Below are positions 3,036 through 8,353 of a stretch of 64,000 nucleotides of DNA, one piece after another. Source of the DNA: a phage; the NCBI GenBank assembly GCA_016658885.1, contig GCA_016658885.1_4807.1. One strand, written 5' to 3'. Numbering within the stretch: position 1 is the first letter of the stretch; each line of letters opens with the position of its first letter. Position numbers and translations under genes: made by a program. The notes under the pieces were generated by a model. The model saw only the letters and a program-made list of their open reading frames with translations. It ran no database searches and was not told the origin of the DNA.

Positions 3036-3431
3036 ATGAAAGGTAATGATATGTCAAATAAGAATGATTCTATTCACAACACATATACTAAAGGCAGCGG
3101 AATGGCCTTTGGTGGCAGAATCAAAATTGACGTTCCAGCCTGCGATTCTGATGGGTTGGAAGTCGGCAACCGAGACTTAACATGGGTTTTACGTCGCCAA
3201 TCTGATTTAGAAGAGAAGCTGGAAAATATTGAGCGTTCTCTCGAAAGTTTGCGCGACCAGCTTTTTGGTTGTCCTGAAGATGATTCAAAACCTGGACCAT
3301 ATGCATCCAATCATGGTTTGATTGATAATATGCTTGCTATTACCGCTCGATCAATTGGTAAAACTGTGTCCATTGAATCATTGATCAGCCAGATTGCGGA
3401 TGGCTTTGGTGATGCCCATAAGAGCGAATAG
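3036..3431 (+). CDS. hypothetical protein (about 126-131 aa; start may be ATG at 3051)
   Basis: ORF track; no motif recognised. Confidence 0.45.
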   Translation: MKGNDMSNKNDSIHNTYTKGSGMAFGGRIKIDVPACDSDGLEVGNRDLTWVLRRQSDLEEKLENIERSLESLRDQLFGCPEDDSKPGPYASNHGLIDNMLAITARSIGKTVSIESLISQIADGFGDAHKSE

Positions 3432-3509
3432 TGGGTGGATGTCGCTTTAACCGTGAATCGTGGGTCGTGGGTCGCTTAGGGCGGCCCTTTCTTTTGCCTG
3501 CCGCGCAGG

Positions 3510-3775
3510 AGTGTACTGCAAATTTCCTGTGGGTACAAAATAGTACGGTACTGTCTAGGACTTTTTCTTTGAAAAGTTAGTGGGCAAATGTGTCGTATTT
3601 TGATTAGTGTACTGCAAATTTCATCAAGTACCAAAACGCACCAAAAGACCCATGCCATAAAAACCACACGAACGCAATAATCAATCGCCGTTACAGTTTC
3701 CAGCGTTACAATTCGAAAGCGAATGATTCGAAGCATAATAATATGAAGCATAATGATTCGAAAGCGAATGATTGC
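3510..3775. repeat. cluster of short direct repeats in a non-coding stretch
   Basis: AGTGTACTGCAAATTTC at 3510 and 3606; ATTCGAAAGCGAATGATT twice near 3711 and 3754; GAAGCATAAT twice near 3730 and 3746. Confidence 0.55.
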
Positions 3776-4090
3776 GTGTAGGATAATATCGGTGGGGATT
3801 ATTCTAGATGCGTGTAATTTCGCATGCGTACTATTTTCGGGCGAAGGGTCGGCATATTTATCGTTTTAGTTCGGAACGAAGGGAAAGTTTTGCGCCTTTA
3901 TAAAACAACGACTTACGCGACCCTCCCTAACGGTCCGATATAGGTGTCTATATAAAACAAGGACTTACGCGATGTTTTCCATTTAACGTAATACCCGTTA
4001 TGCGAACTAAGGCGCATCTCGACGAAGATTATGCGACGACGAAGGGAAGGATAAAGGAGTTTTCGCGGAGAAGCGCATCGAGATAGGGAC

Positions 4091-4116
4091 GAAGAAAAGC
4101 CGCGACTAAGCGCGGC
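4091..4116 (-). terminator. rho-independent terminator downstream of 4137..4427
   Basis: On minus strand GCCGCGCTTAGTCGCGGC hairpin followed by TTTTCTTC. Confidence 0.55.
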
Positions 4117-4136
4117 CTATTAGTAACGGAAGGGTA

Positions 4137-4427
4137 TTATAAGGAGACGATTTTAAAGAAAGAGTAACGGCCTTCGCCTTCGGATAGCGCGAGATATTCG
4201 CCGCCGAACTCCGTAGCAAAATAAACCTTACCTTCGATAGTAACGCGGAAGGTAGTAATATCTTCCTCTTCGAGTTCCGTAAATTCGCTAAAATCGATAG
4301 GACTATGAAGCTCTTCGATAGTTGCATCTACGTTAAAGAGATAAACGTTTTTAAGTTTTTCGCCAAATACGTTAGAGTTTTCGGAAGTTTCGACGCGAGC
4401 GGAACGGATAGCGGCTAAAGTAATCAT
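4137..4427 (-). CDS. small acidic protein (96 aa), island paralogue candidate
   Basis: ORF track; start context CTAGGAGAATATTATG shared with three neighbouring island genes; Asp/Glu-rich. Confidence 0.5.
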   Translation of the reverse strand: MITLAAIRSARVETSENSNVFGEKLKNVYLFNVDATIEELHSPIDFSEFTELEEEDITTFRVTIEGKVYFATEFGGEYLALSEGEGRYSFFKIVSL

Positions 4428-4451
4428 AATATTCTCCTAGTTAGTCGGGAG

Positions 4452-4472
4452 GGTAGCGACCTATTCGCTACC
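4452..4472 (-). promoter_or_regulatory. 5' leader RNA hairpin GGUAGCGA-AUAGG-UCGCUACC
   Basis: Perfect 8-bp stem and 5-nt loop, 24 nt upstream of the ATG at 4427; covarying copy at 5017..5037. Confidence 0.5.
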
Positions 4473-4494
4473 TCATCCCCTCTCGATATAAAAC

Positions 4495-4525
4495 ATTATA
4501 GTCTTAGTGTACGAAGAAGTAAAGC
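4495..4525 (-). promoter_or_regulatory. sigma70-like promoter for 4137..4427
   Basis: Minus-strand CTTTACTTCTTCGTACAC...TATAAT; same element repeated at 4894..4923 and 4965..4993. Confidence 0.45.
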
Positions 4526-4534
4526 ACTTTTTCG

Positions 4535-4837
4535 TTATTCTGCGATAAAATATTTATAAGCTTTATCGCCTTCTACGTCGATATACTCGACGATAATTAA
4601 CGCTTCGCCGCGAGGCGTAACCGTCTCGATAAGGGTAACGGCTTCGTCGTCGGTCTTCGCGAAGCGGATGGCGCTACATTCGGCGTACTTCATATCATCG
4701 AAGGAAAGGCCGATGAAGGCGACCGCGCGGACCTTAATGGCGCTAGATTCTAGTTCCGCGTTAACGGCGGCGATAAGAGAGCGAACGGTTAAGCGGTCTT
4801 CGTCGTAAGTAAGGATGGAAGAGATTAAAGTAGTCAT
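4535..4837 (-). CDS. small acidic protein (100 aa), island paralogue candidate
   Basis: ORF track trimmed to ATG at 4837 preceded by GGGAGCTTTATTATG; acidic composition. Confidence 0.5.
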   Translation of the reverse strand: MTTLISSILTYDEDRLTVRSLIAAVNAELESSAIKVRAVAFIGLSFDDMKYAECSAIRFAKTDDEAVTLIETVTPRGEALIIVEYIDVEGDKAYKYFIAE

Positions 4838-4893
4838 AATAAAGCTCCCGATGCTAGTAGAAGAAAGGGCCATCGCCCGTCTCGATATAAACA

Positions 4894-4923
4894 AGTATAC
4901 GCGAGTGTACGAAGAAGTAAAGA
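4894..4923 (-). promoter_or_regulatory. sigma70-like promoter for 4535..4837
   Basis: Minus-strand CTTTACTTCTTCGTACACTCGCGTATACT, followed by TGTTTATATCGAGACGGG as in the 4495 copy. Confidence 0.4.
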
Positions 4924-4964
4924 AAAAAGATAAAATAATTTATCGCATTTTTATCGAAAAAGTG

Positions 4965-4993
4965 CTTTACTTTTTTCTACACTATATTATAAT
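4965..4993 (+). promoter_or_regulatory. sigma70-like promoter for 5062..5376
   Basis: CTTTAC, 17-bp spacer, TATAAT; near-identical inverted copy of the 4504-4531 element. Confidence 0.45.
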
Positions 4994-5016
4994 GTACTCA
5001 TATCGGGACGGGATGA

Positions 5017-5037
5017 GTTAACGAATAGGTCGTTAAC
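5017..5037 (+). promoter_or_regulatory. 5' leader RNA hairpin GUUAACGA-AUAGG-UCGUUAAC
   Basis: Same loop and inner stem as the 4452..4472 hairpin with compensatory outer-stem changes; 24 nt upstream of the ATG at 5062. Confidence 0.5.
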
Positions 5038-5061
5038 GCCTCTCCCAACTAGGAGTTTATT

Positions 5062-5376
5062 ATGGCTATCGTTACCCGCTTTACCCTCGAAAACGCAACC
5101 GCCGAAGTCCAGGGCGTTACGCTTACTTACGGCGAAATTCTCGCGAAATTCTCCGGCGTTCGCTTAGGCGAAGAAATTAACGACGCGACGGTAATCGAGC
5201 AACTCGCTGCTTCTCGCTTAGAGCGCGACGAAAACGGATTCTTCGAAGTCGATGCGGAATTAAATTTATGCGGTAAAACGGCGTTTATTAACGAGTTCGA
5301 ACTCGCCGTTTTAGTTAATTACGATAGCAAAGCTTACGCCTTCGCCCTCGAATTAATCGAAGACGACGAAGAGTAA
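5062..5376 (+). CDS. small acidic protein (104 aa), island paralogue candidate
   Basis: ORF track; AGGAGTTTATTATG start context; ends IEDDEE. Confidence 0.55.
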   Translation: MAIVTRFTLENATAEVQGVTLTYGEILAKFSGVRLGEEINDATVIEQLAASRLERDENGFFEVDAELNLCGKTAFINEFELAVLVNYDSKAYAFALELIEDDEE

Positions 5377-5456
5377 GAGAGGATTTTTAGAGCGTCGTGC
5401 GCGGCGCTTTAATAAAATTCTTTCGCGCCTAGCGCCCTAACAAATAGGAGTTTATT

Positions 5457-6083
5457 ATGGTTAGCTTAAATCGCTTTTCTACTAGCGGCGACGTTATCGC
5501 AACTAAGACCGCCGACCTCGTTGCATTCTATAATGCAAATTCCGGCTCAAAACCGATTAAGAAGTTTGCGGACCGCCGGACCGCCGAGACTCGCGTAATC
5601 GCGTTAATCGAGTCCTTAAACGCGCTCGATGCGCCGTCCAACGAATCGCCCATCCCCGACGCTAAGCCGCGCGAGGAAGTGTCCAGCGATGTAAAAACGC
5701 ATAAGGCGCGTGCGGTCGTTAAAAAGGCTGAGCCTACCCAGGAAGAACTCGACGCGATGACCGACGAAGAATATGAAGCCTTCGTTAAGAGCGGTTTAAA
5801 CGATAGTGCAAATTGCGTAGTGCAAAATGGAACTCCTTCCCATCGCCGTTCGAATAGCGAAGGTATTGCAAAAAGCTGGGATAATAAGGAAGTGGCGCAA
5901 AAGCGTCTCACCCGTAACGGCGTTATGGTCGAGGGTGTAGGCGAGTTCAAATCGGTCCGCGTAGCGTTCGGCGCGCTGGGATTACCGGATAGCAAGCACA
6001 TTCGCTTCCGCATGAAGCTTAAGGAAGCTGGGCGCTTGAACTTCGAGTTCGGCAACAAGTCCTACACCTTCCAGATTATCTAA
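5457..6083 (+). CDS. hypothetical protein (208 aa)
   Basis: ORF track; identical AGGAGTTTATTATG context; carries two ATAGTGCAAAT-type motifs internally. Confidence 0.5.
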   Translation: MVSLNRFSTSGDVIATKTADLVAFYNANSGSKPIKKFADRRTAETRVIALIESLNALDAPSNESPIPDAKPREEVSSDVKTHKARAVVKKAEPTQEELDAMTDEEYEAFVKSGLNDSANCVVQNGTPSHRRSNSEGIAKSWDNKEVAQKRLTRNGVMVEGVGEFKSVRVAFGALGLPDSKHIRFRMKLKEAGRLNFEFGNKSYTFQII

Positions 6084-6089
6084 TCGAAT

Positions 6090-6113
6090 GGCGGCCCTTC
6101 GGGGTCGCTTTTC
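6090..6113 (+). terminator. rho-independent terminator
   Basis: GCGGCCC-ttcg-GGGTCGC hairpin followed by TTTTC. Confidence 0.55.
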
Positions 6114-6511
6114 ATAGTGCAAATTGGTGGCTTATGAATACTCTCATTCTCATCGCTACGTTGTCCATCGGAAGTGGTCGCACCTTATCCCTTTATGATC
6201 ATAGTGCAAATTGCGCTTACCCAACGCGCGTTGCGGCAATAGTTAATAGTGCAAATCGAATGCTATTCGAGACTTGTTGGCGGGTCGATAACGAGAAAGG
6301 TCGGGTAGTCTTAGGTTATAGTGCAAATCTGCTGGTGGAGTCGTTCGATTGGACGGTTGAAGGTCGTAAATTGTTACGGAAAGTGACTAAAAGATGACTT
6401 ATAATAATACACTTTCTAACGCGTTTATGGTTGTAACCTTCCCCATCGTATTACCGATGGCCCTAGAAGTGGAGAAAATGTGTTCTAGGGCCGTTTTATA
6501 GTGCAAATTGG

Positions 6512-6985
6512 CTAGTGGCGGGAGAATTGCTCACCTTCTTTGGCCGCCTCTCCAAAATCCTTGTAGAAATCGTCCATAGAACGGCCCATTTTACTATTGC
6601 CGTTTTCATCAATCATCGTGATGCCGTAGATGATATTCAGTTCACGAATAGCATTAAGCTTGGCTGATGCCGCGACTTCTGGATCACGCACAAGCTTGAC
6701 CAAATTGTGAATTGCACCTTTTACGCTCCATAAATCCTTGAGTGGCATTTCTTCCATACGCTTTTTGAAGCGCATTTTGTAGTACGGATTGCGTTGTGCG
6801 CAAAGGATTCGCTGGCCAGTGTAGTTATCCGTTGCAACTTCCATTCCAAATACTAGTGCAAAAGCTGCGCGCATGTCATGGCCCTGAATAACAAGGTCAA
6901 TGAACTCATCGAATAAAGCCTGATTGTGCTCTGCAAATCGCGGGTCTTCAAAGTCTTCAGGCATCGCTACATAATCTTGACTCAT
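6512..6985 (-). CDS. hypothetical protein (about 157 aa)
   Basis: ORF track trimmed to the MSQDY start; no motif recognised. Confidence 0.45.
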   Translation of the reverse strand: MSQDYVAMPEDFEDPRFAEHNQALFDEFIDLVIQGHDMRAAFALVFGMEVATDNYTGQRILCAQRNPYYKMRFKKRMEEMPLKDLWSVKGAIHNLVKLVRDPEVAASAKLNAIRELNIIYGITMIDENGNSKMGRSMDDFYKDFGEAAKEGEQFSRH

Positions 6986-7221
6986 AGTGCAAAATCCCAT
7001 AGTGCAAATTAATAGTGTGAATTATACAATGGATGGACATTATATTCAAGTGCAGATTGATGTTCATTATGGCTATAAACGTACACAAATCATAGTGCTG
7101 AATGGATAACGGACCGTGGTGCGTGGTGTACTGTTTGATACGAATAAAAGAAATCCATCCCTTTCGCCGCTTGCTATGCAAATCAAAGACTTAGCCGCTG
7201 CTGGCTGGTTGAAGCGTATCA

Positions 7222-7590
7222 TGACGTATCATCCGTATTGCCGCAAGTCTTTGTTTTTACTTATATATTACGGATGATACGTTAAATATATAAATTAACA
7301 TAAGTATGAGGATGTAGAAAAAAATTAATTTAAATTAATTCAAAATGGAGTTAATTAATTTTTCAAATTATATATATAACGATGCCCAGTTTTATCCGTA
7401 TCATCCGTAAGATTAATGTACAAGCCAGGCGCGGCAAGGGCTGTACACTGATACGGATAAAAAACCATGACGTATCATGACGTAAGGGTGTACCAATTTG
7501 GAAAGGATGAATCCAGGAACGGCGCGGCCTGTAGCCATGATACGCTTAATTTTTAACCGTATTTTAAGCGTATCAAATGTGTTCAAACAC
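7222..7590. repeat. iteron-like repeat region with AT-rich core (origin-like), copy 1
   Basis: Direct and inverted copies of ACGGATGATACG / CGTATCATCCGTA flanking an AT-rich block at 7310-7380; similar to 60190..60462. Confidence 0.6.
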
Positions 7591-7816
7591 CACGTTTCAC
7601 GACACTAAAATTTCAATCCATAGATATAATCTAACAAACATCACGGACCAATAGACACGACCTATGAAATATATTTCTAAATATTTCCGCACAATCAATA
7701 AATAAAACACAACCTCATAATCATTCCATCGCAAAACACGACCCAAACAACAAAAGGCCGCATAAAGCGACCAATTGCACACATTCCATTCTTCAAAACA
7801 CACAAATCAATGTTCT

Positions 7817-8353
7817 TTATCCGCTGACCTTCCAGTCACCATTCCTTTTATCACGCTTCTTTAACTCCGTTTTAATGACATTATTATCCACAATAACTCC
7901 TAAACGGCGCAATTCACACATGACCTTGTGGCGATATTGTCGAAGCTTTTTGACGTCCATTGTGCTCCTTGAATAAGATAATACCATAAAAATAATATCA
8001 TCATTCATCTTGTAGCGCATACAAGTTTTATAATGCCTTTTGAAAATAGCATTAACGGCATCTGTTTTCAGCAATTCATCCATTAATTCTTGATTCCCTT
8101 CACAGACGTTAATGACCCATTCATCCCTTGATTTTGCCGCTTTCAATCCCCTTAGAGTTAATAACTCATATAATGCCTTTCTGCACTTAGAGCAATCACC
8201 AATTGTCAAACTTGATTCCATTTCTTGAGCATCGGTCAACTCTGTATTGCCTTTGCTGAATTTACCGCACAAGCTGATTTGCTCGCCGTCGTCAAAGTAG
8301 TGGGCAAGTTTTGAGTATCGCGGCTTGCCCCATCCTGCAACGTTACCCATCAC
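7817..8353 (-). CDS. hypothetical early protein (178 aa)
   Basis: ORF track; first gene of packed minus-strand array. Confidence 0.5.
   Translation of the reverse strand: MMGNVAGWGKPRYSKLAHYFDDGEQISLCGKFSKGNTELTDAQEMESSLTIGDCSKCRKALYELLTLRGLKAAKSRDEWVINVCEGNQELMDELLKTDAVNAIFKRHYKTCMRYKMNDDIIFMVLSYSRSTMDVKKLRQYRHKVMCELRRLGVIVDNNVIKTELKKRDKRNGDWKVSG

Follow-up and report, generated by a model that had tools for sequence, protein, structure and literature searches.

An oriented 11-bp repeat array around the small terminase gene in the terminal repeat of Wifcevirus phages as a candidate TerS recognition and autoregulation element

Near one physical end of their genomes, certain Escherichia coli myophages carry a short DNA word that recurs many times on a single strand, around and within a gene recorded as hypothetical, which raises the question of what reads this word and for what purpose. 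The stretch analyzed here, referred to as the window, comprises 64,000 nucleotides of phage DNA (GenBank assembly GCA_016658885.1, contig GCA_016658885.1_4807.1) and belongs to the E. coli myophage genus Wifcevirus, with 92–97% identity to E. coli and Shigella Wifcevirus phages (WFC, WFH, vB_Eco4M-7, BASEL Bas98-101 and others). The word is the 11-mer ATAGTGCAAAT, and its copies surround terS, the gene for the small terminase subunit (TerS), inside the direct terminal repeat. From its sequence context, we tentatively read the array as a candidate TerS recognition and autoregulation element that would mark the terS-proximal end of the terminal repeat for packaging, a reading to which we give slightly less than an even chance. 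Feature coordinates are collected in Table 1.

The exact 11-mer occurs seven times in the window, always on the plus strand, against an expectation of 0.00 in 100 dinucleotide-preserving shuffles; the comparison had been set beforehand as a check by an earlier note on this DNA, and it confirms enrichment over chance. A 9-base core, TAGTGCAAA, is found ten times on the plus strand between 5804 and 7008 and is absent from the minus strand and from the rest of the window, adding the copy at 6853 to those the earlier note had listed. Of the nine same-strand copies claimed there, seven are exact, and those at 5817 and 6984 are variants that depart from ATAGTGCAAAT by one or two bases. The placement of two copies (5803 and 5817) within the coding sequence 5457..6083 was correct, as was the exclusion of a clustered regularly interspaced short palindromic repeat (CRISPR) array, given 11-bp units that are irregularly spaced, by 13–355 bp, and mostly inside genes, with no regular periodicity and no repeats of at least 23 bp. 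The description of the copies as mostly intergenic has to be reversed: most lie in the 208-aa gene, the 87-aa gene, or terS and its starts, and only those at 6114 and 6498 are intergenic, each abutting a terminator hairpin. Nor does the cluster end at the minus-strand gene 6512..6985, as had been stated; the array straddles it. Spacings vary irregularly from 12 to about 600 bp and show no 10.5-bp phasing. The degenerate copy at 5530 is probably incidental, because it codes for a conserved FYNA peptide.

The straddled gene is annotated "hypothetical" in the Wifcevirus records examined, Pfam gave no match for any terminal-repeat gene, and PHROGs returned function-unknown families only. A phmmer search of PDB sequences, however, aligned residues 3–147 of its product with residues 7–150 of 7UXE chain A, the decameric TerS of Pseudomonas phage E217 (E = 7.3e-34). 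An AlphaFold model built with 19 homologs (predicted local distance difference test score, pLDDT, 76.8) had 7uxe_A as its best Foldseek match, with a probability of 1.00, followed by the TerS proteins of PaP3 and NV1 with weak scores. The predicted fold agrees with that of a TerS, an N-terminal helical DNA-binding domain plus an oligomerization helical hairpin. By sequence match and predicted structure, the gene is the E217-type small terminase gene. It lies about 9 kb from terL, the large-subunit gene, in this phage, and the E217 terS gene is likewise far from terL (review PMC9611059).

Two strong sigma-70-like promoters point into terS from 7066–7021, which places the copies at 7012, 6999 and 6984 at roughly +1 to +30 of the terS transcript. 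In the window and in three newly sampled lineages, L174, L175 and L176, the perfect -10 TATAAT of terS is immediately followed by a motif copy or a motif-like one, and two of these lineages, L174 and L176, carry CTGCACTAT at the position equivalent to the window copy at 7012. A perfect TATAAT stands 25–45 nt upstream of the terS start in all sampled lineages. The gene has two in-frame start candidates, ATG 7000 and ATG 6985, each supplied by a motif copy ending in ..CACTATG; a strong ribosome-binding site precedes neither of them, and the leader would be only 14–29 nt if transcription begins near 7014.

The array was then placed relative to the genome ends, which were taken as deposited in the records rather than from reads. 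Of the 72,472 bp in the linear WFC record, the first 3,784 recur at the right end, which agrees with the length of about 3.7 kb that Korf et al. gave for the terminal repeat (PMC6563267). WFC position 1, the terS-proximal physical end ('a'), corresponds to about 7345 in the window, and the distal end ('b') to about 3565; by this mapping, the array lies wholly inside the direct terminal repeat, 0.3–1.5 kb from the 'a' end. In WFC itself, the array runs from 324 to about 1540 bp off position 1, with nine core copies at 338–1534, and the gene nearest the physical end is terS, 360 bp away. The Pantoea phage Kyle has the same architecture, with a terminal repeat of exactly 3,603 bp. The array thus has the position looked for in a terminase recognition site: it adjoins the deposited genome end in WFC and Kyle, and it adjoins or overlaps terS in ten lineages. 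The motif-related element GAAATTTGCAGTACAC flanks the other repeat boundary, which we count in favor of TerS as the reader, and a homologous AATTTCACAGTACACTAATCA adjoins the distal repeat boundary of Kyle.

The terS-proximal boundary coincides with the center (about 7340) of an AT-rich stretch at 7219–7470, the "iteron region" of the earlier note, which is flanked by imperfect inverted repeats (7255–7281/7397–7423 and 7390–7403/7449–7462) of ATCATCCGTA/TTATCCGTATCA units. The terminase may cut in this stretch, which could also, or instead, be an origin. AYTTWAAAAA begins the WFC genome as well as that of Kyle. Short metagenomic contigs of about terminal-repeat length (L177, 3983 bp; P0006, 3755 bp; L175, 6380 bp) have terS 350–520 bp from one end; they lend independent support to the repeat boundaries, as would be expected if a double-coverage repeat assembles separately.

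Conservation was assessed within and beyond the genus. Nine Wifcevirus genomes (93–97% identical) have copies at orthologous positions. Nine further lineages, in which TerS is only 41–68% identical, carry arrays of 4–12 copies each, always on the terS-sense strand; with the window counted in, all ten lineages have copies at the terS start, inside terS and just beyond its stop. Written in the terS sense, the consensus of 35 copies from three genomes is rATTYGCACTAY, with GCACTA invariant. In the Pantoea phages Kyle and PA1 (Kylevirus), whose TerS is 42% identical to that of the window, 10–12 copies of TTYGCACTA surround terS, all terS-sense. The complete Kyle genome has nine TYGCACTA words per terminal-repeat copy and none on either strand of its 66 kb of unique sequence, and such confinement to one region argues against a general transcription factor. 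In the 87-aa gene, all three copies sit at codons that are homologous between the window and PA1 (DHSANC/SDSANC, VNSANR/VNSANL and GYSANL/GHSANI) in proteins that are only 31–33% identical, and the homolog in the Serratia phage MTx lacks the motif codons. The remaining copies have shifted position between lineages at maintained density. Because copies persist at homologous codons while others move at constant density, selection acts on the DNA word and not on the proteins. Conservation in related phages, which the earlier note had proposed as a check, is thus found across Wifcevirus and the nine further lineages. Its suggestion that a regulator or a protein of replication or packaging binds the copies gains on the packaging side from the location of terS inside the array, the terminal-repeat end and the clade-wide conservation, with the binder a putative one.

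A search of the literature with the motif strings returned primers and unrelated matches only and no description of the array, and the Wifcevirus, vB_Eco4M-7 and BASEL papers mention neither the array nor terS. An IMG/VR scan for TGCACTA-N(4-34)-TGCACTA retrieved more than 120 unrelated contigs, which were noise only.

Presence of the array coincides with a substitution in TerS. In an alignment of TerS homologs, at the position of window residue 64, every phage without the array has Glu (Pbunavirus, Myosmarvirus, Burkholderia phage WTB and about ten metagenomic lineages), and the array-bearing phages have Gln, Lys or Arg, followed by Arg-Asn-Pro-Tyr. In the model of the window TerS, Gln64-Arg65 end the helix 56–65, predicted as the third helix of the N-terminal domain (pLDDT about 90). 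The pattern was posed as a prediction before new lineages from a large protein collection were considered and was borne out in all eight: L174–L180, whose TerS proteins are 47–68% identical to that of the window, have Gln or Lys at residue 64 and 4–12 terS-sense copies in every one, and L181 has Glu and no motif copies. In total, arrays are present in 10 of the 10 sampled Gln/Lys/Arg-type lineages and absent from about 13 Glu-type lineages; a neighbor-joining tree groups the 14 Gln/Lys/Arg-type TerS proteins into one clade.

These observations can be joined in a tentative mechanism. The 11-mer would be a cis-acting, orientation-fixed protein-binding signal over the terS-proximal 0.3–1.5 kb of the repeat, most likely read by the phage's own TerS, with ATTTGCACTAT as the proposed target word. 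The solved E217 homolog forms decameric rings; a TerS ring of this kind would dock on the repeats with helix three of its N-terminal helix-turn-helix domain, where the array clade carries Gln/Lys/Arg-Arg in place of Glu. Only direct repeats could be read together, because all subunits of a ring are proposed to face the same way; close pairs, which in a weak trend lie 12–15 bp and never 16–24 bp apart, would engage neighboring subunits, and dispersed copies would recruit more rings. The resulting nucleoprotein patch would label the concatemer junction for the large subunit, TerL, whose cut would fall about 340 bp away, where the boundary is AT-rich and palindromic. Through the copies at +1 to +30 of its promoter, terS may be under negative autoregulation. 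Higher-order assemblies have been reported for E217 TerS, and its overexpression lowers infectivity, excess being reported as harmful (PMC9611059).

Several points weigh against TerS as the binder. E217 TerS showed no appreciable DNA binding in vitro, though it is of the Glu type (PMC9611059). As a TerS site, 10–13 copies spread irregularly over 1.2–1.5 kb and neighboring genes would be unprecedented, known sites covering tens to about 200 bp. In phage lambda, Chi clusters mark the end that is not covered by terminase (PMC12315714), and here Chi and the motif share one end. Because the Gln/Lys/Arg types form one clade, substitution and array represent a single evolutionary event, and their co-variation, although consistent with TerS as the reader, fits any other clade-specific protein equally well. 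At least four uncharacterized proteins are common to the window and Kyle and absent from MTx, and among these four or five proteins no recognizable DNA-binding domain was found. No good motif copy is present in the terS leader of Kyle, PA1, L178 or L179. Within Wifcevirus, core positions were variable at a rate similar to that of other positions (14/99 vs 187/1525, p = 0.53), in a comparison that is dominated by one replaced pair and low in power because the genomes are too similar; the replaced pair is 5803/5817, which has given way to other sequence in Ro157lw-type genomes. The 35 copies from three genomes show no helical phasing. Spacings cluster, weakly, at 12–15, 25–30 and 36–46 bp, and we did not accept a periodicity on a best Rayleigh p of about 0.006, obtained before multiple-testing correction from lineages that are not independent.

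The array has a companion in the recombination hotspot sequence Chi. The window Chi at 6331 has the orientation in which it would act on RecBCD coming in from the terS-proximal end. In 8 of the 10 array-bearing lineages, the 11-mers are interleaved with 2–9 exact CCACCAGC words on the same strand, equivalent to Chi 5'-GCTGGTGG-3' on the other strand, again in the orientation active for RecBCD entry at the 'a' end. At the terS-proximal end of the repeat, oriented arrays of 4–9 exact Chi copies occupy 255–1972 in L014 (Kyle), 2810–4382 in L016 (PA1), 163–1393 in L012 (MTx) and 2104–2447 in L015 (MyoSmar), and are also seen in L175–L180; no opposite-strand Chi lies within the repeat of the Chi-array lineages (Kylevirus, Myosmarvirus and several metagenomic relatives). 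In the Serratia phages MTx and MyoSmar, Chi arrays of four exact copies stand without the 11-mer, and MTx adds many one-mismatch copies. L174, the closest relative outside Wifcevirus, has no Chi, and the Pseudomonas Chi GCTGGCGC forms no cluster near the terS of Pbunavirus. In five lineages, a Chi octamer lies within the -35/-10 spacer of the terS promoter (L014, ~290–320; L016, ~2880–2905; L175, ~384; L176, ~411; L179, ~3939). Oriented terminal Chi clusters have been described for P1, lambdoid LLS-type phages and MD8, where they were read as reliance on RecBCD-promoted recombination-dependent replication (PMC12315714), and the Chi arrays here are a further example of the clusters already described for P1 and LLS. 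They show exposure of the terS-proximal genome end to RecBCD. The annotations of Bas100, Kyle and MTx include neither a recombinase nor a RecBCD inhibitor. Alongside a TerS-bound array, the interleaved Chi sites would have a separate job, stopping RecBCD that enters at this end and diverting it to recombination between the repeats.

The 11-mer itself resembles Chi in having a single orientation relative to the DNA end, lying on the same strand as 5'-GCTGGTGG-3', and lacking phasing; in sequence it shares no more than GTG with Chi, and the true Chi sites, 5–9 per array in relatives, are separate from it. The 11-mer could be a further polar signal of the Chi type, which an enzyme travelling from or towards the terS-proximal end would read on one strand; that reader might be a nuclease-helicase, the packaging motor as it comes up to its termination cut, or the machinery for ejection or internalization. 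Spacing would then be irrelevant, because copy number gives a cumulative recognition probability, and the strict single orientation, irregular spacing, indifference to coding or non-coding DNA and turnover at constant density would all be accounted for, as would the interleaving with same-orientation Chi in those eight lineages and an array filling the last 1.5 kb before the genome end; terminal Chi clusters are, moreover, an established phage strategy (PMC12315714). We nevertheless judge this explanation unlikely, as the word is not related to Chi in sequence, there is no known host enzyme that reads it, neither a nuclease-helicase nor a recombinase is annotated in the genomes checked (Bas100, Kyle and MTx), and the operator-like copies at the terS promoter are left unexplained. 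The 11-mer also follows the phage clade and not the host order, as illustrated by the Serratia Myosmarvirus with Chi arrays and no 11-mer, and this distribution points to a phage-encoded reader and disfavors a host factor. Distinctly unlikely, in our estimate, is the related proposal of a phage-clade-specific counterpart of Chi, a directional genome-end signal whose reader would be a machine in motion and not a static binder. That reader could be the terminase motor nearing its termination cut, a sliding ring-shaped TerS, or an unknown nuclease-helicase, which together with host Chi would decide the fate of the first-entering or last-packaged end.

Among static binders, another clade-specific phage DNA-binding protein might use the array as operators for silencing terS together with the convergent early operon and take no direct part in packaging. 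In several lineages the terS promoter has copies at +1 to +30, as would suit such a regulator, the remaining copies fall within the convergent operon, and several uncharacterized proteins are common to the array-bearing genera and absent from MTx. A regulator, however, needs neither about ten sites nor a fixed polarity to the genome end, and the sites are non-palindromic, in one orientation, and run through 1.2 kb of coding sequence instead of concentrating at promoters; with the strong early promoters at 4495–4993 devoid of copies, and the terS promoters of Kyle, PA1, L178 and L179 lacking a good one, we regard this as rather improbable. Replication-origin iterons are very unlikely. P4-type primase-helicases bind direct octamer repeats, a VapE/D5-type primase-helicase gene lies 1–3 kb upstream of terS in all relatives, and the AT-rich stretch with inverted repeats (7250–7430) that would belong to such an origin is about 300 bp from the first copies; yet the spacing is irregular, the array reaches 1.5 kb from the AT-rich region through three genes, that region (7280–7390) has its own, different repeats of the ATCATCCGTA type and is centered on the mapped genome terminus, and there are relatives with the same primase-helicase and AT-rich boundary but without the motif. 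That the motif is non-functional, as a leftover duplication or a coding by-product of a repeated S-A-N peptide, or acts only as an RNA-level signal, is scarcely credible. Four or five coding copies do share the frame xAT-AGT-GCA-AAT, and two copies abut terminators, but frame sharing is expected because the TAG in the motif excludes one of three frames. Non-coding DNA and the antisense strand of terS hold copies as well, and a second frame is used too (V-V-Q-N, L-V-Q-N); the flanks of the copies are unrelated, and arrays are kept down to 41% TerS identity. As RNA, the motif in terS would fall on an antisense transcript, and no Rfam 15 match at E ≤ 1 was found in window 3400–8000.

If TerS is the reader, the array would be classed with terminase recognition repeats. 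Like lambda cosB R1-R3, the SPP1 pacL/pacR boxes, the P1 pac hexamer arrays and the P22 pac site in gene 3, it consists of short repeated words beside a genome terminus, at terS and lineage-specific, and in each case an oligomeric TerS is the proposed reader, by way of its N-terminal helix-turn-helix. The known sites form compact blocks of 22 to about 200 bp with 1–7 repeats, often of mixed orientation or accompanied by host-factor sites, whereas this candidate site has 10–13 copies in strictly one orientation, spread irregularly over 1.2–1.5 kb and through three genes of a long-terminal-repeat phage; its many dispersed, Chi-interleaved copies and clade-wide occurrence would make it unusual. 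The SRL/SRR arrays of T7 and T3, said to have been described by Dunn and Studier in 1983, reportedly consist of 7-bp units next to the terminal repeat, with a function long unclear and suspected to be packaging-related. They share with the present array same-orientation short repeats adjoining a direct terminal repeat and packaging from concatemers; the T7 units are said to be near-tandem 7-mers at the edges of a 160-bp repeat, unlike the 11-mers dispersed within genes of a 3.8-kb repeat. Plasmid and phage iterons and partition repeats, such as the P4 ori/crr octamers and the 11-bp repeats of R1 parC, are direct repeats of 8–11 bp bound by an oligomeric protein, and they are regularly phased and tightly clustered, in contrast to this dispersed array without phasing. 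The terminal Chi clusters of P1, LLS and relatives, and the Pseudomonas phage MD8 also have one orientation and irregular spacing near one end (PMC12315714), but the 11-mer is not Chi or a known variant of it and tracks the phage clade and not the host, and the window keeps only one exact Chi.

How small terminases choose viral DNA is, to our knowledge, a long-standing question; for most solved TerS rings we know of no specific DNA target bound in vitro, and for TerS proteins of the E217/Pbunavirus type we know of no target sequence. The array offers an 11-bp candidate target, a natural on/off comparison between the Gln/Lys/Arg clade and Glu types, and one residue to mutate in a structurally solved family. 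A synthetic assembly and reboot system has been published for the close relative vB_Eco4M-7 (PMC11074155), which makes a test of the array practical. Correct annotation is also at stake: the Wifcevirus records examined carry terS as "hypothetical". A long-terminal-repeat myophage family whose relatives include the therapeutic Pbunavirus phages, moreover, arms one genome end with oriented Chi arrays, which bears on host RecBCD dependence and genome-end engineering.

Table 1. Features of the 11-mer array and its surroundings, in window coordinates
Feature	Position	Strand	Remarks
Exact copy ATAGTGCAAAT	5803..5813	+	Inside 208-aa gene; codons D-S-A-N, variable linker
Variant copy GTAGTGCAAAA (core exact)	5817..5827	+	14 bp past the 5803 copy, inside 208-aa gene
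Exact copy	6114..6124	+	Intergenic; directly 3' of the T-run of terminator hairpin 6090-6113; 10 bp before 87-aa gene start
Exact copy	6201..6211	+	In 87-aa gene, H-S-A-N; homologous codon copy in Pantoea phage PA1 (D-S-A-N)
Exact copy	6246..6256	+	In 87-aa gene, N-S-A-N; homologous copies in PA1 and Kyle
Exact copy	6318..6328	+	In 87-aa gene, Y-S-A-N; homologous copy in PA1; Chi starts 2 bp downstream
Exact copy	6498..6508	+	Intergenic; directly after hairpin and T-run 6470-6497, just beyond terS 3' end
Variant copy CTAGTGCAAAA (core exact)	6853..6863	+	Antisense strand of terS, F-A-L of TerS; invariant in 9 Wifcevirus genomes
Variant copy ATAGTGCAAAA	6984..6994	+	Overlaps terS start codon at 6985
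Exact copy	6999..7009	+	terS 5' leader; overlaps alternative in-frame ATG at 7000
Degenerate copy ATAGTGTGAAT	7012..7022	+	Abuts -10 TATAAT of proximal terS promoter, near expected transcription start
Degenerate copy ATAGTGCTGAA	7092..7102	+	Upstream of terS promoters; perfect ATAGTGCAAAT in phage vB_Eco4M-7
Degenerate copy TATTGCAAA	5864	+	Further degenerate match
Degenerate copy ATAATGCAAAT	5530	+	Encodes conserved FYNA peptide
terS, small terminase subunit (E217 type by sequence and model)	6512..6985	-	157 aa; first gene inward from terS-proximal repeat end
Two overlapping sigma-70-like terS promoters	7021..7066	-	TGAACA-16-TATAAT and TTGAAT-17-TATAAT; perfect TATAAT boxes
Direct terminal repeat, about 3.78 kb	about 3565..7345		Mapped from linear WFC record
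Boundary element GAAATTTGCAGTACAC, motif-related, terS-sense	3509..3527	+	Just outside distal repeat boundary
Boundary element, second copy	3605..3623	+	Just inside distal repeat boundary
Chi GCTGGTGG	6331..6338	+	Only exact Chi in terminal repeat; in all Wifcevirus genomes examined
One-mismatch Chi GCTAGTGG	6511-6518	+	Follows 6498 motif copy
87-aa gene	6134..6397	+	Signal-peptide-like N-terminus; three motif copies; real, conserved; homologs in Kyle, PA1 and MTx
208-aa gene, phrog_4730 (function unknown)	5457..6083	+	Contains 5803/5817 pair; conserved

Several known classes of site were compared with the motif and rejected. As for sigma-70 promoters, none of 16 promoter-like sites is built from the motif; at terS the copies come after the -10, and in other places their direction is opposite to that of the local genes. 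A hand check of the sequence found no -10 at the distance required for an extended -10, a sigma-54 promoter or a T4 MotA box with -10. A palindromic operator is contradicted by the lack of any reverse-strand copy in the repeat and by only 3 of about 13 copies being at a promoter. Among host-factor sites, the DnaA box matched at 7 of 9 positions and failed the relaxed consensus, the NtrC half-site TGCACTA had no inverted partner, and OxyR, marbox, Tus/Ter, KOPS and EcoKI sites gave no convincing match. T5-like nick sites and mobile repeats were set aside, the copies being confined to one 1.2-kb patch with unrelated flanks.

The 208-aa protein encoded beside the 87-aa gene has no Pfam match, is conserved from Pbunavirus to Wifcevirus, and has two paralogs in MTx. 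Its C-terminal segment, EFKSVRAAFxALGLPDSKHIRFRMKLKEA, is nearly invariant and presumably resembles a helix-turn-helix of the homing-endonuclease type; because this segment is equally conserved in phages without the motif, the protein is a poor candidate reader. Further into the repeat, window 4425–5064 is a divergent early-promoter region with three or four near-identical promoters (TTTACT-16/17-TATAAT) that drive small terminal-repeat genes both ways and are embedded in inverted repeats, with 65-nt arms at 4425–4489/5000–5064 and 33-nt arms at 4505–4537/4952–4984.

In L168 (IMG/VR 3300036845_000169), a distant Glu-type relative, two blocks of 8/16-bp tandem repeats (..TTCAAA..) in one orientation lie downstream of terS, at 4625–4713 and 6241–6385, and may be an analogous but unrelated repeat system. 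At the distal boundary of the window repeat, the 12-mer GAAAAGTTAGTG (3571–3582) is the reverse complement of MTx (L012) 12–23, beside the PhageTerm-defined terminus, and MTx has an inverted version matching at 10 of 12 positions near its other boundary (3538–3549). The 12-mer may be a conserved terminus-proximal element, whose orientation relative to the stated termini differs between the window phage and MTx. Just inside the distal part of the terminal repeat, window 3702–3789 holds a tandem-like repeat with a 15-bp period, made of GAAGCATAATGATTC / GAAAGCGAATGATTC units.

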